DNA of 32,000 nt. It comes from Candidatus Helarchaeota ASGARD archaeon Hel_GB_B. GTDB lineage: Archaea; Asgardarchaeota; Lokiarchaeia; Helarchaeales; HEL-GB-B. The stretch lies in NCBI GenBank assembly GCA_005191425.1, contig SUPR01000028.1:1-32000 (forward strand), in the 5' to 3' direction. Made by a program: the position numbers and the translations under genes. Of this stretch, positions 552 through 11,519 are shown piece after piece (the first letter of the stretch is position 1; each line of letters opens with the position of its first letter). The notes beneath the pieces were generated by a model. It was not told the origin of the DNA. It ran no database searches and was given only the letters and a program-made list of their open reading frames with translations.

Positions 552-1520
552 ATGGAATTAAAACTTGGTAAATGCCTACTTTTTGGTAGCATTAATTTGG
601 TTATTTATCTTGTTGCACCGTCAATTATAATTTTTATGATGTCATATTATAAGATTCTACAATTCAGTCCAACTTTTGTTATCTCACTTATGATTATGGG
701 ACTCATTCAATCTGGAATTTCTTATTTTAAAAATCTGTTTCCCTCGGAATCATTAATTTTTAATTTAATAGGTATTGGTACTTCAATTTATTCAGGGATT
801 TACTTTTTTTACATGTTTGGTGGATTTAGCCTTGATAGGACTTTTGGTTATTATCAAGTGAAAACTAGTAATTTGGAAGCAAGTTTTGGTCTGCAATTCT
901 TTGCTTGGTTAATCTTTATTGCTTCCCTTATAAACACAACCTATTATATTATTAAAGGTATTGAAAGTTCTAAAAAGAAAGTTTTTTTTGTCGGCAAAAA
1001 AATAAAATTACGAAATATTGCATTAATATCAATAATTTTTATCTATCTAATTATTGGAGCATTTATTGCAAGTATAATTATAAGCGGAACAAGATTATCA
1101 TTTAATTTAAAGGATGAATATACTTATACATGGGATACTGGATCTAACCCTTTTTCTCATGATGATGATAGAATCCAAATTATTACATATTTTGATGTTC
1201 CGAATTTGGGAATTTATTCTGTAAAAAAGATACATCTTAATATTGACATTTACACTGTTAATACAACAGATACCACGCAACTTTTATTACCGGATAATAC
1301 AAAAATCGGAGAAATAAAAGACGTTTACTACCCTGAATTCCCTGCTATGCAAGTTATTTATAACCAAAATCTTACTATTGATATTATCCCTCAATATGTC
1401 CCGGGGCTTATAACTAATAATGCTACATTAAGACTATTTTGCTCTTTACAATGCAGCTATGCTGGAATTATAATTGACCTAAATACGACAATTCATACTA
1501 TTTGGACTGCTTTAGCCTAA
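552..1520 (+). CDS. Hypothetical membrane protein (about 5 N-terminal TM helices plus a beta-rich C-terminal soluble domain)
   Basis: 322 aa; hydrophobic segments in the first ~180 aa; GAGGT SD-like motif upstream. Confidence 0.8.
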   Translation: MELKLGKCLLFGSINLVIYLVAPSIIIFMMSYYKILQFSPTFVISLMIMGLIQSGISYFKNLFPSESLIFNLIGIGTSIYSGIYFFYMFGGFSLDRTFGYYQVKTSNLEASFGLQFFAWLIFIASLINTTYYIIKGIESSKKKVFFVGKKIKLRNIALISIIFIYLIIGAFIASIIISGTRLSFNLKDEYTYTWDTGSNPFSHDDDRIQIITYFDVPNLGIYSVKKIHLNIDIYTVNTTDTTQLLLPDNTKIGEIKDVYYPEFPAMQVIYNQNLTIDIIPQYVPGLITNNATLRLFCSLQCSYAGIIIDLNTTIHTIWTALA

Positions 1521-1717
1521 GTCTAATCCATCCCATTTTTTAATTTTCCTTCACTTTTCAGTTATGATAATATGTAAAAAATTATACTGAATATTACTAA
1601 TAATGATATTACGAATATCACGTCAGATATTTCTGATTTCTCCATTTTTACCTTTTGATTTATTCAATCAAAAATTATTTTAATCTTTCTGTCATTTGTT
1701 TTACTGGTGATTTTAAT

Positions 1718-1963
1718 TTGAACAAAAAAAATAAAGGACTTATTTTTTTGTTGATTGGAGTATCCCTAGTAATTTTTCCAGCAGTAATAGCAACTCTAAC
1801 ATTATTTGGATTGGTTGAGCCAATTATTTTTCCTCCTACTGGGAAACCACTCGATTTAATGCCATTCATAAATGTTTTAGGCTGGTTTCTTATGCTCCTA
1901 ATCATTCTTTATACCGGCTCGCGTATTGTAGATTGGTCTATAAAATATTTGCGAAGTGATTAA
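1718..1963 (+). CDS. Small 2-TM membrane protein, paralogous to the downstream ORF
   Basis: Probable TTG start at 1718 with GGTGA at 1706-1710 (the ORF track starts at 1655). The motif PLDL..IN......IILYTGSR....SIK is shared with 1956..2498. Confidence 0.7.
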   Translation: MNKKNKGLIFLLIGVSLVIFPAVIATLTLFGLVEPIIFPPTGKPLDLMPFINVLGWFLMLLIILYTGSRIVDWSIKYLRSD

Positions 1964-2498
1964 AATAAAACGAAATATTTTACCTAAAATTCTATTTATT
2001 ACAGGTATCTTTTGTATTTTAAGCTCGAGCATTTTATTTATTGTTTTAATTTTTAATTATGCAAGTATCCCGCAATTTTTTTATTCTATGGACAACCCTC
2101 AATTGACAGTCATAATAAATATAGTTTTATGGGGAATTCTTTCTGCTTTACTACTTGAAATTGGACTTAATTTTCACCAGAAATCTAAAGATTTTAAAAA
2201 GTTTAATACTGAACCGATAATGTCTGTTAATATTATTGCTTTTATTGGATACATCCTGGTTTTTACGGTTATAACATTTATTATCTTATTTTTATTACAA
2301 ATTATCCCATCAATTAATTATTTTCCCCACCAATTACTATCTGAAGATGCTGTTCCTATTGACCTCTCCAACTTATTTAATTTATTCTTGATCTATTTTA
2401 TGATCAATATTATTTATAGGTCTGGGTCCAGATTATTGGGCCGGTCTATTAAATTATCTCAAATTAATAATAAAATAGTTAATAAAGAGCTTGATTGA
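1956..2498 (+). CDS. 4-TM membrane protein built from two copies of a TM-hairpin unit
   Basis: GTG start overlaps the upstream ORF; four hydrophobic helices; C-terminal PIDL..LFN......IIYRSGSR....SIK. Confidence 0.75.
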   Translation: MIKIKRNILPKILFITGIFCILSSSILFIVLIFNYASIPQFFYSMDNPQLTVIINIVLWGILSALLLEIGLNFHQKSKDFKKFNTEPIMSVNIIAFIGYILVFTVITFIILFLLQIIPSINYFPHQLLSEDAVPIDLSNLFNLFLIYFMINIIYRSGSRLLGRSIKLSQINNKIVNKELD

Positions 2499-4159
2499 AA
2501 TTGAAACGAAATTATAGTATTTCATTAGTACTTTTAATATTTAGCCTTTCTTTACTCATTACGCTTTCTAATATTTCACCTATTGCTGAATCTGGTGAAA
2601 AATATTGGGAGAGCACTCCAATTGTTGAGACACACCATTATCCAGGTCATCTTAGTAATGAAACAAATCTTCTTTGGTTCGTTCAAATAACAGATGTTCA
2701 TATTAACTCTTTTGAAAAAATATTTGGTGTCCAATCTGAATTACTTAGACAAGCTTTAAATGATATTAAAAATTACATAAAACCGTCCTTTATTATTGAT
2801 ACAGGGGACCTTGTTAATGGACTCAATCCATTACCATATCACCAGAACCCGCAACAATGGATGATAAGATATAAAGTCTTACAGGATACTCAAATGAATT
2901 CCTCTTTTTATTATGACCTTGTTGGAAACCATGATGGTTATGGGAACTCAGATAATTTTTCTTATTTTCTTAATTGGTCAATTCAGAAAAAACTACAATA
3001 TACATTCAATAGGTCAATTGGAAATTCAAATTATACCTTTATTGTACTAAATTCAGTCTGGTCTAATGGTGCTGAATGGCCAGATGGGACCAGTGGAGAA
3101 CTTAATACATCTGAACTTGATTGGTTTGAATCTCAATTAATTAAAAACAAAAATTCTAATTTGACTTTTGTCTTTCAACATCACCCATATACAGATGTGG
3201 GTAATTTCACTACTACTACTGGCAAATCTTTTATTGATTTACTTGAAGAATATAATGTTACTGCCGATATTTTCGGACATGGGCATGAAGATCTTGAGTT
3301 AAACCAGGGTGGGACGATTTGTATCGAAACCGGTACTCTCGGTCAAGGTGATAAATCTATTAGAATTTTTGCAATCGATAATGATGGCGTTTCTACAAAA
3401 GTTGGTGTCCTAAATAATTGGCCAATCGCTATGATTACAACTCCAATGGACAGAGACCTAACTCGTACTGCTTATGACATCCCTAATTCATCTAAAAGTG
3501 CCCCGATTCGAGCGATTGTATTTGATAAAAAGCCTATAATTAAAGTCGAATTCAATATCGATAATGGTCCTTGGTATAATCTAACTAATTCACCATTAAT
3601 AAAGCCACTTTGGAACGGCTCGTTTAATCCTTCCACATTATCAAATGGTATACACCACGTTAACTTAAGAGCAATAAGTGAATCCGGGATATCTACTGAT
3701 TCTGTTACAATTTTTATTGGTATTTCTAAAAAACCTGAAATTATTAATGGAAAAATTAAAGATGTTATTAGATATTCTGATGCAGGACCCCTTAGATACG
3801 ACCTTTCAATGTATAAATGGGACAAAGTTGACTCCAACAAACTTCTTAAATGGAATTTATCTAATGTTGACCCGTCATTTTGTAAAGTGCAAATAATTGA
3901 TAATGATACACTTCTTTTTACTCCTAATCCATCAGCAAGTGGGACTAAGTCCATTATAATCACTTTAAATGATACAGCTGGTTATTATACCTCTCAAGTT
4001 ATTCATATCACGCTATTATCGAGGTTCAACTCCAACCTTTTGGTCTTTTTTGTTACAATTCTTGAATTAATTATTGTCCCAATCTCTTTTTTATTAGGGA
4101 TTTTTTGGTATAAACTCTCTAAATTTAATATCTTTAAGAAATCTAAAAAACAGAAATAA
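2495..4159 (+). CDS. Membrane-anchored calcineurin-like metallophosphoesterase with Ig-like C-terminal domains (TMEM62-like)
   Basis: Intact motifs TDVH, TGDLVN, GNHD, QHHP, GHGH; N-terminal signal/TM segment; C-terminal TM plus basic tail; start overlaps the upstream stop (TTGA). Confidence 0.88.
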   Translation: MKLKRNYSISLVLLIFSLSLLITLSNISPIAESGEKYWESTPIVETHHYPGHLSNETNLLWFVQITDVHINSFEKIFGVQSELLRQALNDIKNYIKPSFIIDTGDLVNGLNPLPYHQNPQQWMIRYKVLQDTQMNSSFYYDLVGNHDGYGNSDNFSYFLNWSIQKKLQYTFNRSIGNSNYTFIVLNSVWSNGAEWPDGTSGELNTSELDWFESQLIKNKNSNLTFVFQHHPYTDVGNFTTTTGKSFIDLLEEYNVTADIFGHGHEDLELNQGGTICIETGTLGQGDKSIRIFAIDNDGVSTKVGVLNNWPIAMITTPMDRDLTRTAYDIPNSSKSAPIRAIVFDKKPIIKVEFNIDNGPWYNLTNSPLIKPLWNGSFNPSTLSNGIHHVNLRAISESGISTDSVTIFIGISKKPEIINGKIKDVIRYSDAGPLRYDLSMYKWDKVDSNKLLKWNLSNVDPSFCKVQIIDNDTLLFTPNPSASGTKSIIITLNDTAGYYTSQVIHITLLSRFNSNLLVFFVTILELIIVPISFLLGIFWYKLSKFNIFKKSKKQK

Positions 4160-4539: not shown

Positions 4540-4953
4540 TTACTCAAATTCTAAATCTAATTCTTCTGCTACTATTTCTATTAAGGCTCTTAGTTTCATG
4601 GCTTTAGCCATTTCACCTATGATTTTTAAGTCGCCTTGCATATAAGCGCTTGCGGCATCAGTTTCTCCAGTAAACATACCTTTTGCAGTTTCTTCGTTCA
4701 TCTGTAATGTGACATCTGGATCATCAATTTCACCTTCACCTGTAGTTAATTTATGATCCTCAATCTTTATCCAAGCTTTAATTGATTCCCCGGCATCAAA
4801 CTGAATCTTAACATCATCAGAGTCTTCTAATTCATCTTGAAGGTCTTCACTGCTAGCTGCTAACTCTTCTAGTGCACCTAAAAATATAGGTAAGCTTTTT
4901 GCTTCAAAATTTCCTTCTTCAATTAATTTTTTAACTTCATCTACTTTACCCAT
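4540..4953 (-). CDS. SCP2 sterol/acyl-CoA-binding domain protein, copy 1
   Basis: PDVTLQM...GMFTGETDAASAYMQGDLKIIGEMAKAMKL is the SCP2 signature; GAGGT SD upstream. Confidence 0.9.
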   Translation of the reverse strand: MGKVDEVKKLIEEGNFEAKSLPIFLGALEELAASSEDLQDELEDSDDVKIQFDAGESIKAWIKIEDHKLTTGEGEIDDPDVTLQMNEETAKGMFTGETDAASAYMQGDLKIIGEMAKAMKLRALIEIVAEELDLEFE

Positions 4954-5011
4954 ATTAAATACCTCATTATATCTTATTTTTTTAGAGGGTTCCTTTTTTG
5001 AAATTACTTAT

Positions 5012-5033
5012 ATTCGCATTAAATCACGCGAAT
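5012..5033. promoter_or_regulatory. Inverted repeat ATTCGC-N10-GCGAAT, candidate operator upstream of SCP2 copy 1
   Basis: Perfect 6-bp arms, CG-containing in very AT-rich DNA, about 60-80 bp upstream of the start codon. Confidence 0.3.
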
Positions 5034-5499
5034 TTAAAAATTTTAGATTAATATTTTAGTAATTTATTCCAAAAGGACATATAAAGATTCATAATATAAT
5101 TTAAAAATTTTTCTTACTTGAGAAAAATACAAGTATAATTATAAATTTTTTAAGGGGAGTTTTAGTAATGAGAGAAAATAAATAAAAGGAAAGAAATATA
5201 GACTTAATAAATGTGTAATGATATAAAAATAATTCAAATTAGAATGTCATTTTAAAAAATTGATCTTGAATAAATAGAATTAAGATAGAAATTTTATAGT
5301 TATTTTAGAAATTGTCAGTAGATTATTATAATAAAATAAGAGGAAAATTTCAAAATATAAAAGGAAACTTTTTAATTTTATATTGCTAAAAACATCATTT
5401 GAAGGATTTAATACATTCAAAATAAAAAGAAAGAAATAACATGATAATAAAATAAATAAAAAAAAGGAGAATATTATTATTTATAGAAAATCATCGAGA

Positions 5500-5913
5500 T
5501 TATTCTAATTCGAGATCTAATTCTTCTGCGACAATTTCGATGAGAGCTCGTAATTTCATAGCCTTGGCCATTTCACCGATAATTTTGAGATCTCCTTGCA
5601 TATAAGCGCTTGCAGCATCAGTTTCGCCAGTAAACATACCTTTACCAGTTTCTTCAGTCATTTGAAGAGTAACATCAGGATCATCAATTTCTCCTTCACC
5701 AGCAGTAAGTTTATGATCTTCTATTTTTATCCAAGCTTTAATTGTATCAATTACATCGAATTGAATTTTAACATCATCGGTGTCTTCAAGCTCATCTTGT
5801 AGATCTTCACTTGTTTCTGCTAGCTCTTGTAGTGCGCCCAAGAAGACTGGGAGATTCTTAGCTTCAAAAGCGCCATCTTCAATTAATTTTTTTACTTCAT
5901 CAATTTTACTCAT
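5500..5913 (-). CDS. SCP2 sterol/acyl-CoA-binding domain protein, copy 2
   Basis: 119/137 residues identical to copy 1 by manual alignment; GAGGT SD upstream. Confidence 0.9.
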   Translation of the reverse strand: MSKIDEVKKLIEDGAFEAKNLPVFLGALQELAETSEDLQDELEDTDDVKIQFDVIDTIKAWIKIEDHKLTAGEGEIDDPDVTLQMTEETGKGMFTGETDAASAYMQGDLKIIGEMAKAMKLRALIEIVAEELDLELE

Positions 5914-6125
5914 AAATCTAACCTCTATTTGGTCATTTAGTAGATCAAATTATTCTATTACTACAAGGAAGTTTATTTTTGTATATTAAGTATATTTACA
6001 AATATAGAATATATTAATAATTAAAAACTTCCGAATTTTATGTATATCATAAAAATTATGTTTAGTTATAAAGATTTTTCTTAACATAAAAAAGTTTAAA
6101 AAATAATTATTAAAGGAAAAAAGTT

Positions 6126-6160
6126 TTAATTAAAACCTGTAGAAGAGACGGGTTAATTAA
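6126..6160. promoter_or_regulatory. Imperfect inverted repeat in the divergent SCP2 copy 2 / copy 3 intergenic region
   Basis: TTAATTAA-AA-CCTGT-AGAAGAG-ACGGG-TTAATTAA can pair as 13 bp with a 2-nt bulge. Confidence 0.3.
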
Positions 6161-6438
6161 AGTCCACAAAAAATATAAAATGGCATGGTAAATAATAATA
6201 TAAATAAAATGAAGTGGAAAATTTAAAAAAAAACCATCAGCAGGATTGTAGTAGAATAAAATTTTGGATAAAGAAAAAAATTATTAAGAAAGAAAGAAAA
6301 AGAGCGAAAAAAATAAAAAGAAAAAATAATAAGAGTTAAATACAGAAATACAGAAATATTGAAATTAAATAAGAAAATTAATCAGAAAATTAATTTAGAA
6401 TTAGTAAAATATTGGTAAAAAAAAGGAAGTATTAAATA

Positions 6439-6852
6439 ATGGCTGTTGAAACAATAAAAACGAAGGTAGAAAGAGGAGAATTTGAAGCAAAGGATTTTGG
6501 GATATATTTAATGGCAATAAAGGAGTTGGCAATAAAAGATAACGAAGTTAGAGAAATATTAAGAGAAATGCCTGATTTTGTGATACAATTTTCGATTTTT
6601 GGGGCGATAGATGTATATTTACAATTAAAAAATGGAAATTTAGAAGTGGTAGAGGGAGTAATAGAAAACCCAGCAATAAAATTTGAGATGACAGATGTAG
6701 TAGCGACAGGGATAATAAAAAATGAAATAGATCCAATATCGGCATATTTATCTGGAGATATAAAAATAAATGGGGAAACTGTATTAGCGATGAAATTAAA
6801 GCCAATAATTGAGAAATATAATAAGATATTGGGGTTTAAAGTTATAACTTAA
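6439..6852 (+). CDS. SCP2 domain protein, divergent copy 3
   Basis: GEFEAK, IQF and IDPISAYLSGDIKINGETVLAMKL align with copies 1 and 2; also 137 aa. Confidence 0.88.
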   Translation: MAVETIKTKVERGEFEAKDFGIYLMAIKELAIKDNEVREILREMPDFVIQFSIFGAIDVYLQLKNGNLEVVEGVIENPAIKFEMTDVVATGIIKNEIDPISAYLSGDIKINGETVLAMKLKPIIEKYNKILGFKVIT

Positions 6853-7486
6853 AAAAGGCTTATAACCGAATCATGTAGAATTAGAATGGTGTAGTTTATA
6901 ATCGTAGATAAAATTATAGAATGTTTTCTGAAATATCTTTATTCTGTTAATTTTTTCGCTAAAATCGCAATCAGAACTTTGATCAGTGGACATAATAATA
7001 TTTAGCGTAAGAAGATATAAAAAGACCACAATAACAGAAGAAATGCGAGAATTAAAACGCCAAATTTTTAAAGGATGAGGACGAGAAAAAATGATGATAC
7101 ATAAGATGTAAGGTTAAAAGTAATAAAATACAGTGGGATAAGTCTTAAAATAGTCAAAAATAAAAATAATAAAAAGTAGATAAAAAATAAAATTACCCGA
7201 CTGAAATCAAGAGAATTATAAAATAATTTTAATAAGAAAAATAAAGAAAAAAAAAATTAAAATATTAAAAATGGGTTTGTAAATATCCTTAAGTCTGACG
7301 TTATTAAAATTACCAAATAAAATATTCAAAAAAAAAGTTAATAGAGTTAAAAAAAAATAATAATAATTGCAAAAAGCTATTCATTTTAAAAGAGGAATAA
7401 TGAAGGTTTAATTTAAAGGTCAATGGAATTAAATTTTTAAAGACATATTTTCCATTTTTTATAATAAAATATGTCGGAGTAAAATA

Positions 7487-8680
7487 ATGGAAGAAAAACC
7501 CGAAAGATTAAAGATTATGGAATATGAAGTTGAAAAAAAAGATTTTAAAGCAATATTTTCAAGTAATATAATTGAACCGATAATTAAATTTATTGAGAAG
7601 ACAAAAATATATAAAATATTTTCACGAGTACCAAAAATAGTATATTATTTTATTGGACGAGGTTTTAGTTGGGAATTTTTTGGTGAATATAAAAAAGAAA
7701 TGGTCAAAACAACAAGGAAAATTATGGGAAAATTAGTAAATAGAAAATATAGAGAAAAAACAGTTGAAGAGAGAGATTGGGTTATAAATGAAATAGTTTA
7801 CCATAATACAGTCTATATGACGGAACTATTTTTAGAAATAATTATATTATTACCATATTTTTGCCACGTGAGAGATATAGACAGATTTTTTAAAATTAAA
7901 GGACTTGATTATTTAGATAATGCATTGAAGAAAGAAAGAGGAGTAATATTAATCTCTGGGCATATTGGAAATTATTTATTTATGTGTTGTTATTTAGCAT
8001 TAAAAGGTTATAAAATAAACTTTATTTTAGAATACAGGTCATTCAGAGGTATTTTGAAATTATTAAAGAATTGTGGAATAAAGTTAATCCCAGTTCCAAG
8101 AATAGAAAACAATAAAATTAGAAACAAAATAAAAAAAATTATAGATAAAGCTTTAGATAATAATGAAATAGTAGTTATTATGCAAGATGCGGGCTTAAGA
8201 CATTATATGTTAATAGATTTTTTTGGTGAACCATGTCATACAGCAACAGGTGCTATATCTTTAGCATTAAAACATGGATCGCCGATTATACCAATTTTCA
8301 TTAGAAGTCAAGCTAAAAAACATGAGTATGAGATATCAATTTATCCTGAATTTAAGATTGAAAGAGAAAACATTAAGAACGATAAAGAAATAATTTATTA
8401 CAATACATATAGATTAAATAAAATACTTGAAGAGAAAATTAGGAGAAATATTATATATTGGAATAATTTAGCAATATATCATATAAGGAAATCGTTTAAA
8501 AAGAAGAACTTATTTGAGCAAAATTCAATTTTAGATAATTTAATCAACGAAATCCAATTTTTTAAAGATTATTTAAAATTTAGTTACGAAGTTAATAGAG
8601 ATGACGAAAAAATAGAAAAAATTTTAGATGAAGCGAATTTTGAATTTAGAAAAATGAAGGACGAACAATCTAAATCATAA
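7487..8680 (+). CDS. Lipid A lauroyl-acyltransferase (LpxL/HtrB/PatA-like) LPLAT family protein, paralog 1
   Basis: GLDYLDNALKKERGVILISGHIGNY and FFGEPCHTATGAISLALKHGSPIIPIF match family blocks. Confidence 0.82.
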   Translation: MEEKPERLKIMEYEVEKKDFKAIFSSNIIEPIIKFIEKTKIYKIFSRVPKIVYYFIGRGFSWEFFGEYKKEMVKTTRKIMGKLVNRKYREKTVEERDWVINEIVYHNTVYMTELFLEIIILLPYFCHVRDIDRFFKIKGLDYLDNALKKERGVILISGHIGNYLFMCCYLALKGYKINFILEYRSFRGILKLLKNCGIKLIPVPRIENNKIRNKIKKIIDKALDNNEIVVIMQDAGLRHYMLIDFFGEPCHTATGAISLALKHGSPIIPIFIRSQAKKHEYEISIYPEFKIERENIKNDKEIIYYNTYRLNKILEEKIRRNIIYWNNLAIYHIRKSFKKKNLFEQNSILDNLINEIQFFKDYLKFSYEVNRDDEKIEKILDEANFEFRKMKDEQSKS

Positions 8681-8803
8681 AATTTTATCTTAGTAATTTG
8701 AAAAACATTAAATTGGTCAAATAAATCCATAAAAATTAAGTTGTATAAAAAATCGATTTCAAAATAAATTTATTTTAAAAGTTTTAAGTCAATATTTCAT
8801 TAT

Positions 8804-9202
8804 ATGAAAAACAAATTAATTAAAGAACAATACAAATTTTTTAAAAGAATTCCACAGGTTAGACCAATAAAAGAGGGAGAAATATTAATAAAAATAGGGA
8901 ATTTACAGTTATTACTTCAATATATTAATGATGAAATAAACATAAATAATGTTAAGGATATAAACAAAGAAGATTTCTGTGTCTTAAAGATCTCAAGGAG
9001 TTCATTTAATTATATATTTAAAGCAAAAGATATAAATGATTATTATTCAAGGTTATTAAATATTGTTTTGTATAAAAAGGATATGAAACTAGAAGTAAAT
9101 GAAAATATTAAGCCAATGCGCAATGCTTTTTTTAAAATTTTAAGTATAAATCGAGGTAAAGGTGGAAAAAACAGATATGAATTGATGGTTGGATATTTAT
9201 AA
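8804..9202 (+). CDS. Hypothetical protein (possibly a highly divergent SCP2-like fold)
   Basis: 132 aa with codon usage like its neighbours; only a weak secondary-structure resemblance to SCP2. Confidence 0.55.
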   Translation: MKNKLIKEQYKFFKRIPQVRPIKEGEILIKIGNLQLLLQYINDEININNVKDINKEDFCVLKISRSSFNYIFKAKDINDYYSRLLNIVLYKKDMKLEVNENIKPMRNAFFKILSINRGKGGKNRYELMVGYL

Positions 9203-9376
9203 CGAATTTTTGTAGATATTTGATAAAAATATGGCATTTAAAAAAGTAATAAATATAATAAAGAAATAACGAAATTTAATAAATAGAAATTTTTTTTATT
9301 CAAATGAAATTAATTGAGTTAAATAAATGAATCATAAAAGTTTTCAATAAAAAATTAGTAATAATGATGAATAAAA

Positions 9377-10279
9377 ATGTTGCATTCAGTAATAATAATA
9401 AAAAAGGATTCCGGAATATGTCTTTTCAGTGAAAAAGAGTTAGATTTTGATTCTACATTATTTTCAGGATTTTTAACGGCGGTACAAAATTTTGCTGAAA
9501 ATTTGAAAATTGGGAGGCTAACAAGCTTTGTTACTAATGATAAGGTAGTAGTAATTTCATCGTCTGAGCAAGTGATTGCATCATTAATAGTAGATTTAGA
9601 AGATAATATCGATGATTGGTTCAGTAAAGCATATATAATTTGTGAAGAATTTGAAAAAAAATATAATTTAGAGGAATGGTCAGGGGAGATTGGAAATTTT
9701 GAGGAGTTTTCAGAAATATTAAAAGAAATATTCAAATCGGAAAAGAAAAACTTTTTAGTAGAAGTAGCTAAATGGGCCAAAAAAGAATTTGGTGGAGAAT
9801 TACAAATTAATGCCTTATTGAGTCCGGAAAAAGGGGCATCAAAATTGAAGGTGGATATATTATTAGATCGAGGAGAACTAGATATTTCAACAATATATGA
9901 CAAGCTTTCGGTTTTTCGATTTCAAGGATTAAAGAAAGACATAATATTTATTAAAGTAATTGATGGAATTGTAGGACGAGGAGAAATAAAAGACTTCATT
10001 GAATCTGTAGAACAATTTGGACAGATGGAAATTGACGAGAAAGACGAAGAAATATTTCCATATTTCCCAAAAATGATCGTAATAGTAGGTAGAGAATTCT
10101 CGGATACAGTATTCGATCTAACAGATAAATTATATAGAGTAAAAAATAAAAAGCATTTTATTCAGTCTAAAAATTTAAATTTGAAATTATTAGGCCCAAT
10201 TGGAAAGTTAGAAATTTTCAATGCATGGGTAGAATATTGGAAATGGAAAGAACCATACCCAGAGAGAATATTTAAATAG
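9377..10279 (+). CDS. Longin-domain protein fused to a C-terminal restriction-endonuclease-like (PD-(D/E)xK) fold
   Basis: N-terminal LHSVIII..DSGICLF...STLFSGFLTAVQNFAE is typical of Asgard longins. C-terminal VDILL...IIFIK...IVG..EI.DF...IVIVG..FS resembles Mrr-type nucleases. Confidence 0.7.
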   Translation: MLHSVIIIKKDSGICLFSEKELDFDSTLFSGFLTAVQNFAENLKIGRLTSFVTNDKVVVISSSEQVIASLIVDLEDNIDDWFSKAYIICEEFEKKYNLEEWSGEIGNFEEFSEILKEIFKSEKKNFLVEVAKWAKKEFGGELQINALLSPEKGASKLKVDILLDRGELDISTIYDKLSVFRFQGLKKDIIFIKVIDGIVGRGEIKDFIESVEQFGQMEIDEKDEEIFPYFPKMIVIVGREFSDTVFDLTDKLYRVKNKKHFIQSKNLNLKLLGPIGKLEIFNAWVEYWKWKEPYPERIFK

Positions 10280-10349
10280 TCATAAAAAGAATACCGAATT
10301 TTCAGTTTTCCATATTAATATTTCAATAATAAATTTTTGTGAGAAAAAT

Positions 10350-11519
10350 TTGTCATTCAAATTAAAAGATTTAATGCCTACAAGAAAAATAATAGAGAGC
10401 GAAGAAGAAATTTTTTATATATTCAATGTAAAAATGGTAAAAAACATTATAGAAATTTTCAAATTTTTTAGATTATATTCGTTTTTCCCAAAAATACCCA
10501 AATCATTTTTAAAATTTTTAGCTCAAGGAGTAAGTCACGTAGTAATAAAAGATGAAACATACAACCAACCAATTATTAAATTCATTAAAAAGATTTTAGG
10601 GAAAAAGATTAATGAAAAATATCCTGGGAGAGAAAAATACATAATAAACAGGATTTTATTTCACAATTTTATAAAAATGTTTGAATTCTTTTTTGAAATA
10701 ATATTATTGATGCCTCATTTTAATATGTATAGACAAATTGATGAATATGTTAAAATAAAAGGACGTAATTATTTAGATAATGCGCTAAAAAAGGGTAATG
10801 GAGTAATAATAGTTTCGGATCATATCGACAATTATCTTCTGTTTCTCATGTTCTTGGCTTTATCGGGTTATAAGGTAAATATAATAATGCAAATTCAGAG
10901 TTATACAAGTATTTTAAAAATTTTAAAAGAATCAGGATTAAAAATAATACCTAGCCCACCTTCAGGAAATGAGAAATTAAGGATAAAAATAAGAAATTTA
11001 ATAGAAAAAGTATTATATAACAATGAAATTTTAATTATTTTACAAGATTTTGGGAGCCAACACTATAAAATAATGGATTTTTTTGATGAACTATGTTATA
11101 CACCAATTGGAGTAGTTTCGCTAGCCTTAAAGTATAATTCACCAATTCTTATGGCTTTTTTCAAGAGTAACAAAAAAAAGTATAGATATAAGATAACAAT
11201 TACCCCTGAATTTAAAATTGAACGCAATTCAGACAAAAAAGCAGATATAATTTTACATAATACGTATAATATAAATAAAATTATAGAAAAACACATAAAA
11301 AGAAATATAATCGATTGGATGATAATCCCAATTTATTATAATAATAGGATATACAAGATTGGTGATATTAAAGATGAAGGTTCTCTTGTTAAAAAAATAT
11401 TGAATAAAATTCAATTTTATGAAAATTTAATAAATAAAAGTTATGAACCAGGACGAGATAGTAAGAAGATTATTTTAGTTTTAAACAAAATGAAGGAAGA
11501 GTTAAAAAGACTGGAATAA
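10350..11519 (+). CDS. LpxL/HtrB/PatA-like acyltransferase, paralog 2
   Basis: GRNYLDNALKKGNGVIIVSDHIDNY and FFDELCYTPIGVVSLALKYNSPIL; co-linear with paralog 1, including the C-terminal YE..RD..KI extension. Confidence 0.82.
   Translation: MSFKLKDLMPTRKIIESEEEIFYIFNVKMVKNIIEIFKFFRLYSFFPKIPKSFLKFLAQGVSHVVIKDETYNQPIIKFIKKILGKKINEKYPGREKYIINRILFHNFIKMFEFFFEIILLMPHFNMYRQIDEYVKIKGRNYLDNALKKGNGVIIVSDHIDNYLLFLMFLALSGYKVNIIMQIQSYTSILKILKESGLKIIPSPPSGNEKLRIKIRNLIEKVLYNNEILIILQDFGSQHYKIMDFFDELCYTPIGVVSLALKYNSPILMAFFKSNKKKYRYKITITPEFKIERNSDKKADIILHNTYNINKIIEKHIKRNIIDWMIIPIYYNNRIYKIGDIKDEGSLVKKILNKIQFYENLINKSYEPGRDSKKIILVLNKMKEELKRLE

Follow-up and report, generated by a model that had tools for sequence, protein, structure and literature searches.

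To our knowledge, no substrate is known for TMEM62, a conserved membrane enzyme of eukaryotes. It combines a metallophosphoesterase domain (PF00149), an immunoglobulin (Ig)-like domain (Ig_TMM62, PF24384) and a C-terminal part (TMEM62_C, PF24394), and the literature mentions it mostly in expression or association screens. No link between TMEM62 and archaea was found in the literature that we searched. An October 2026 preprint (10.64898/2026.10.28.762692) places an unnamed 'metallophosphoesterase' among the structural clusters found solely in Asgard archaea and eukaryotes; this cluster may be the TMEM62 group. Here we describe a gene from positions 1-32,000 of the forward strand of contig SUPR01000028.1 (GCA_005191425.1), a 32,000-nucleotide stretch that we call the window, which belongs to Candidatus Helarchaeota ASGARD archaeon Hel_GB_B (order Helarchaeales). 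The open reading frame (ORF) at 2495-4159 (+) is stop-free and encodes 554 aa. A reading of the letters without database searches (the sequence-only reading) had proposed it as a possible unrecognised eukaryotic-signature homologue of TMEM62. By its domains and its place in trees, the encoded protein is instead a paralogue of TMEM62, neither its orthologue nor its ancestor, and we class it as such because it lacks both defining traits, the TMEM62_C region and a place inside the TMEM62 clade.

For a direct comparison we used a bat TMEM62 (P0205), pulled from a collection of 5.8 billion proteins with a profile of Asgard relatives. BLASTP gave one alignment, which pairs residues 36-399 of the window protein with residues 42-397 of TMEM62 at 24% identity (E 2e-19). 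Here the TMEM62 motifs that the sequence-only reading had named fell opposite their archaeal partners as predicted: IRIFAIDND pairs with YRIFAFDDD, WPIAMITTP with WPVILITNP, IRAIVFD with IRVLAFS, and PLWNGSFNP..LSNGIH with PVFTLKWNP..YSNGTH. These archaeal motifs and VEFNIDN are all present in the window protein, in the order first described. The Pfam family Ig_TMM62 matches residues 308-359 below its threshold (18.2 bits, cut-off 27), and 25 of the 28 orthologues match it at E<=0.01 (best 5.8e-7). To keep the comparison independent of the catalytic domain, we cut the region equivalent to window residues 286-410 from four groups of proteins and compared these Ig-only profiles. The window family aligned with eukaryotic TMEM62 at hhalign 98.5% (E 1.8e-15; 98.0% and E 2e-13 in the reverse direction), and a control with reversed columns fell to 0.2%. 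Thus, the similarity runs through the post-catalytic Ig-like domain, as had been proposed, and is not confined to generic metallophosphoesterase motifs. The same profile aligned with an Asgard group that we name after its member P0157 at 99.8%, and with bacterial proteins at 100% (E 2e-47), which is stronger than the match to eukaryotes.

In fact, the pairing of catalytic and TMEM62-type Ig domains is carried by a much wider family. When 1.84 billion representative proteins were searched with a profile of the 28 orthologues, 369 matched at E<=1e-30, and among the best 150 of these most consist of a single match over profile positions of about 50-415, that is, the catalytic domain and the first Ig-like domain. 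Names, architectures and trees together discern five groups. The bacterial clade is large and diverse, its members bear signal peptides, and those with names include Desulfobacteraceae, Myxococcota, Bacteroidales, Nitrospinota, Aminicenantes and Pseudomonadota. The window's own family, from Helarchaeales ('Hel'), adds a second Ig-like domain and one transmembrane (TM) helix. Other Asgard proteins come in forms of about 600 aa with 4-6 C-terminal TM helices and forms of about 460 aa with one; motif I reads D-x-Q, not D-x-H, in 20 of the 23 sampled (e.g. L008, L016, L015, L019; P0059, P0074), whereas D-x-H is kept in the window family, bacteria, the P0157 group and eukaryotes. The P0157 group is a small set from the class Lokiarchaeia, 590-660 aa long, whose Ig domain passes the Pfam Ig_TMM62 cut-off. 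The fifth group, eukaryotic TMEM62, is represented by a bat, the chytrid Batrachochytrium, Anaeramoeba and one metagenomic sequence, a thin sample because a search with the eukaryotic alignment added just one eukaryote, Batrachochytrium.

The Ig domain is common to all five groups, and each of the two domains is separately significant by hhalign between all four groups compared. The scores of the window-family hidden Markov model are graded: about 315 bits for bacteria, 210-294 for the other Asgard groups and 119-162 for eukaryotic TMEM62. Since bacterial proteins carry the same catalytic and Ig module and score higher than TMEM62, the similarity beyond the catalytic domain is real yet makes no eukaryotic signature, and on this point the sequence-only reading is not supported. 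TMEM62_C itself has no Pfam match in the window protein, where the model and hydropathy place one C-terminal TM helix instead. It does have a counterpart in the P0157 group, whose tail aligns with the eukaryotic TMEM62_C tail over 134 columns (hhalign 97.6%, E 4e-12; both reversed controls <1%); the tails of the other Asgard group gave no signal by hhalign against the eukaryotic ones.

The trees point the same way. In our main tree (IQ-TREE, LG+C20+F+G4 with posterior mean site frequencies, PMSF; 86 rows, 382 columns; support given as ultrafast bootstrap/SH-aLRT, a likelihood-ratio branch test), eukaryotes join the P0157 group at 100/100, and both join the other Asgard proteins at 100/99. The bacteria form a clade at 95/89, the eukaryotes at 98/77 and the window family (10 rows) at 100/97. 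FastTree, with 158 rows, and a quick IQ-TREE search agree with this tree. We also ran approximately unbiased (AU) tests with iqtree2 on 43 rows, under a model (LG+F+G4) simpler than the mixture model and with less thorough, -fast constrained searches. They rejected a grouping of eukaryotes with the window family (difference in log-likelihood 84, p 7.8e-5), one of eukaryotes with bacteria (88, p 6.9e-4), and one of all multi-TM Asgard proteins as a clade without eukaryotes (45, p 0.002). On this evidence the sister of eukaryotic TMEM62 is a different and rarer branch of Lokiarchaeia, the P0157 group, and the window's family is a Helarchaeales-only branch of a wider bacterial, Lokiarchaeia and eukaryotic family. 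Hence only one half of the sister relationship that the sequence-only reading had envisaged between Asgard archaea and eukaryotes survives: eukaryotic TMEM62 does branch with Asgard rather than bacterial sequences, but the Asgard sister is the P0157 group and not the family of the window protein.

These genes are unevenly spread among Asgard archaea. Of 400 species genomes of the phylum, 32 hold a family member, and all 32 belong to the window's class, Lokiarchaeia; searches of about 240 genomes from other Asgard classes did not find the family, which is a statement of what the searches found and not proof of absence. The P0157 type (E<1e-100) occurs in 3 of the 400, with fragments in a fourth, and was not found in the window's genome (3.5 Mb, 94% complete), which holds the window phosphoesterase gene as a single copy. 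Orthologues of the window protein share 43-68% identity with it and come from metagenome-assembled genomes (MAGs) deposited as Helarchaeota, Lokiarchaeota or Promethearchaeota. Three MAGs with family members that were deposited as Hermodarchaeota (L015), Thorarchaeota (L019) and Hodarchaeota (L025) group, in a GTDB-based comparison (G011, G220, G228), with Lokiarchaeia genomes, and share class, family and genus group with many of them. Because such MAGs fall in Lokiarchaeia, submitter labels are unreliable for judging how far the family has spread.

The catalytic domain of the window protein appears fully equipped. As the sequence-only reading had noted, all the metallophosphoesterase motifs are in place, and Pfam Metallophos (PF00149) matches residues 61-265 at E 1e-11. 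The metal-ligand set is complete (D67, H69, D105, N145, H229/H230, H262 and H264), and the seven ligands and the GNHD motif are invariant both in the 28 aligned orthologues and in 11 members sampled for a residue count. An AlphaFold2 (AF2) model built on the 28-orthologue alignment has a mean predicted local distance difference test score (pLDDT) of 86.5 and a predicted template modelling score (pTM) of 0.80. Its nearest solved folds are GpdQ (Z 25.2, root-mean-square deviation 2.0, 217 residues aligned), Rv0805 (Z 23.9), Lmo2642 (23.2) and purple acid phosphatase (21.8), with Plasmodium GAP50 also among the matches (Z 20.5). Foldseek agrees on a GpdQ/Rv0805-like fold (probability 1.00, E about 1e-11), and NCBIfam gives weak matches to SpdA and CpdA. 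Thus, the domain is an alpha/beta sandwich with a seven-ligand binuclear site, as in the GpdQ/Rv0805-like, that is class III phosphodiesterase-like, fold.

Along the chain, the model opens with a helix at residues 2-25 and a disordered linker over 26-40; the catalytic alpha/beta domain comes next, then two beta-sandwiches and a C-terminal helix at 513-553 (Table 1). The second sandwich has weak Pfam Big_9 and Cadherin_5 matches at 446-506. Between the two helices, the predicted ectodomain holds 16 N-x-S/T sequons, compared with 7.2+-2.4 in composition-preserving shuffles, of which 3 in 2000 reach 16. Together with the Lys-rich tail, these sequons support an outward-facing, glycosylated enzyme, the topology being what we infer from the chain. 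The gene begins with two in-frame TTG codons, at 2495 and 2501. The second may be the true start because orthologues begin MKRNYS or VKRNYS and a start at 2501 gives MKRNYS; either codon preserves tight coupling to the upstream stop at 2496-2498. An ORF on the opposite strand (3472-3963) lies nested in the phosphoesterase gene and has no support as a gene of its own.

The second Ig-like domain leads to a separate observation. Giant proteins of 1,100-6,000 aa (P0038-P0044, P0054, P0143, P0160) contain tandem repeats that this domain matches, in 7-40 stretches per protein and with E values down to 1e-148. The module seems to be a unit widely used in the make-up of very large surface proteins.

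The phosphoesterase gene is the last of a three-gene operon in which the middle gene overlaps the first by 8 nt and the phosphoesterase gene by 4 nt. This set of genes keeps its order, with neighbours that overlap or abut, in four genomes (G000, G001, G004, G005) that span three families of the order, G001 being of the same genus as the window and G004 and G005 of two other families. Among the 161 genomes of the class, the gene for the 4-TM protein is found in all four with a Hel-type phosphoesterase and in none of the other 157; a fifth match carries stops. Wherever it occurs, it adjoins the Hel-type phosphoesterase gene. The protein of the first gene duplicates the second's C-terminal hairpin (hhalign 93.7%, E 2e-7), and neither has a Pfam family. 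Profiles of the two small membrane proteins found nothing beside the other Asgard or bacterial loci examined. The genes that flank the module are not conserved, and the conserved unit is the module itself. The sequence-only reading had suggested that the operon context could hint at function: this context does carry information, but what it indicates is two small membrane proteins specific to the family, and no known pathway.

Table 1. Positions of the three-gene operon and of the parts of the phosphoesterase in the window, with the basis of each assignment
Feature	Position	Strand	Basis
Operon gene 1 (P0211), about 100 aa, 2-TM hairpin, N-terminal limit uncertain	1655..1963	+	translation, synteny
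Operon gene 2 (P0212), 180 aa, 4 TM helices forming two hairpins	1956..2498	+	translation, co-occurrence
Operon gene 3, phosphoesterase (P0001), predicted to be membrane-anchored	2495..4159	+	translation, Pfam, 28-orthologue alignment, AF2 model
N-terminal basic stretch and hydrophobic helix, aa 1-27, putative signal peptide or signal anchor	2495..2575	+	model helix 2-25, hydropathy peak
Calcineurin-like metallophosphoesterase domain, aa 56-284	2660..3346	+	PF00149, ligands, fold matches
Ig-like domain 1, aa 286-410, a homologue of the Ig-like domain in TMEM62 (Ig_TMM62)	3350..3724	+	Pfam, BLASTP, hhalign
Ig-like domain 2, aa 420-508, Big_9/cadherin-like, absent from TMEM62	3752..4018	+	weak Pfam matches, model beta-sandwich
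Single C-terminal TM helix (about aa 513-541) and Lys-rich, predicted cytoplasmic tail KKSKKQK	4031..4156	+	model helix 513-553, hydropathy, sequence

Several further candidates around the module were set aside. The two small proteins could have been a detached TMEM62_C, but hhalign against the eukaryotic, P0157 and other-Asgard tails gave at most 3.6%, that is, no homology was detected. Genes of an SCP2/acyltransferase island (4540-11519) lie on the other strand or farther off, and tblastn found none near the orthologues in G001, G004 and G005. An ORF at 552-1520 (+) was considered as a fourth operon gene and is not syntenic in relatives; it encodes a polytopic protein of 322 aa with a beta-rich, sequon-rich C-terminal domain and no Pfam family. 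Finally, residues 67-86 of the first small protein weakly match Pfam Ost4, an oligosaccharyltransferase subunit (18 bits, cut-off 25). This match covers 20 residues of TM helix and probably reflects TM composition; we note it because the adjacent enzyme is sequon-rich.

To explain these results we propose, with moderate confidence, that the window protein is a membrane-anchored, N-glycosylated ecto-phosphoesterase, a Helarchaeales-specific paralogue of TMEM62 that acts with the two co-encoded membrane proteins. An N-terminal signal or anchor would export the protein in a type-I-like manner, and the C-terminal TM helix with its Lys-rich tail would hold it in the membrane. The two Ig-like domains would then stand between this anchor and an outward-facing binuclear-metal phosphoesterase domain of the GpdQ/Rv0805 type, which, at the cell surface or close to it, would most likely hydrolyse a phosphodiester or phosphomonoester. 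In doing so it would probably act jointly with the translationally coupled 2-TM and 4-TM proteins, which occur only where the enzyme occurs. The more interesting candidate substrate is a lipid or glycan phosphodiester close to the membrane, which would fit the anchoring, the obligate membrane partners and the polytopic tail fused to the enzyme in the TMEM62 branch. Several points weigh against this proposal. The partnership is drawn from synteny and co-occurrence in only four related genomes, and the sequon counts are inflated by the Asn-rich composition of an AT-rich genome, although the shuffles keep that composition. The sequence does not reveal the substrate, and no biochemistry of any family member, TMEM62 included, was found in the literature searched. 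Moreover, when the tree is rooted with distant phosphoesterases, which brings in long branches and a simpler model, the window family moves beside the bacteria with weak support (68/78) and the eukaryotes are no longer resolved as a clade.

This bacterial affinity also feeds the main rival, which we regard as possible: a phosphate- or nutrient-scavenging surface phosphodiesterase of bacterial origin, acting on soluble substrates outside the cell such as nucleotides, cyclic nucleotides, glycerophosphodiesters or nucleic acids, whose small membrane neighbours have nothing to do with catalysis and which has no functional parallel with TMEM62. The best profile scores do belong to proteins from bacteria that carry a signal peptide and the same pair of domains, and the nearest folds, GpdQ and Rv0805, like the SpdA and CpdA matches, would suit such an enzyme. 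Yet a simple scavenger is not expected to occur strictly together with two membrane proteins and to be translationally coupled to them, no phosphate-uptake genes are adjacent, and the affinity to bacteria is weakly supported. A bolder version of our own proposal, which we think unlikely, sees the three-gene module as a 'split' functional equivalent of TMEM62, in which non-homologous small proteins would supply the polytopic part in trans and the complex would have as its substrate a membrane-bound phosphodiester (lipid head group or glycan-phosphate linkage) at the outer face of the membrane. It is very unlikely that the phosphoesterase fold serves the protein as a mere scaffold, as in Plasmodium GAP50, and that its role is a non-catalytic one at the surface or in adhesion. 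Its two Ig-like domains, the repetition of the second in giant surface proteins and the presence of GAP50 among the fold matches would be in keeping with such a role, but a pseudo-enzyme is expected to lose some of its ligands, and here every one of them is conserved. We give least credence of all, in fact hardly any, to the idea that the window protein is the Asgard counterpart of TMEM62, as orthologue or direct ancestor, and thereby an unrecognised eukaryotic signature protein. Homology over both domains and the grouping of eukaryotic TMEM62 with Asgard rather than bacterial sequences would speak for it. However, the fully supported sister of the eukaryotes is the P0157 group, which alone shares TMEM62_C with them; the window protein lacks this region, bacterial proteins score about twice as well as TMEM62 against its profile, and the AU test rejects the grouping that this idea needs.

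What is new here is a fourth, Helarchaeales-specific branch of the family with canonical ligands, its extra Ig domain and single TM anchor, and its conserved operon with two small membrane proteins. Three points give these results their interest. The catalytic and Ig core of TMEM62 is an ancient module that bacteria and Lokiarchaeia have as well. The eukaryotic gene lies nearest to a rare Lokiarchaeia group with the same three-part architecture, which bears on the question of which Asgard lineages gave genes to eukaryotes. And the Helarchaeales branch with its operon gives a way to test how enzymes of this family work at membranes; should the split reading be true, it would provide a genetically simple prokaryotic system for working out the orphan enzyme TMEM62. 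Taken alone, the window gene encodes an ordinary-looking surface phosphoesterase, which does not belong on a list of eukaryotic signature proteins.

How, then, does this protein compare with its known relatives? With the glycerophosphodiesterase GpdQ (PDB 2dxl, 3d03) and Rv0805 (PDB 3ib7) it shares the catalytic fold and the binuclear-metal ligand set at 15-18% identity, a likeness that does not imply a shared substrate; those enzymes are soluble and have neither Ig domains nor membrane anchors. The bacterial secreted phosphoesterases are closer, being the best-scoring non-orthologous matches to the window-family profile and having canonical ligands. They differ in forming a separate clade, in bearing a signal peptide and, where the window family has its second Ig domain and TM anchor, C-terminal extensions that are soluble and varied, and in having no small-membrane-protein genes nearby in the loci examined. 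The P0157 proteins (e.g. L006, from Promethearchaeia archaeon BLK3-3.bin.73) come from the same archaeal class and have the same catalytic and Ig core, but they bear a 4-6-TM tail homologous to TMEM62_C and are the sister of the eukaryotic proteins. Eukaryotic TMEM62 itself ends in the polytopic TMEM62_C tail, whereas the window protein, at 24% identity and outside the TMEM62 clade, ends in a second Ig-like domain and one TM helix and is the product of an operon that also encodes two small membrane proteins. Up to that point the two are built alike: both open with a hydrophobic segment, both have the canonical D-x-H, GD, GNHD, H and GHxH motifs in the catalytic domain, and in both an Ig-like domain follows directly, so that they can be aligned continuously over about 360 residues.

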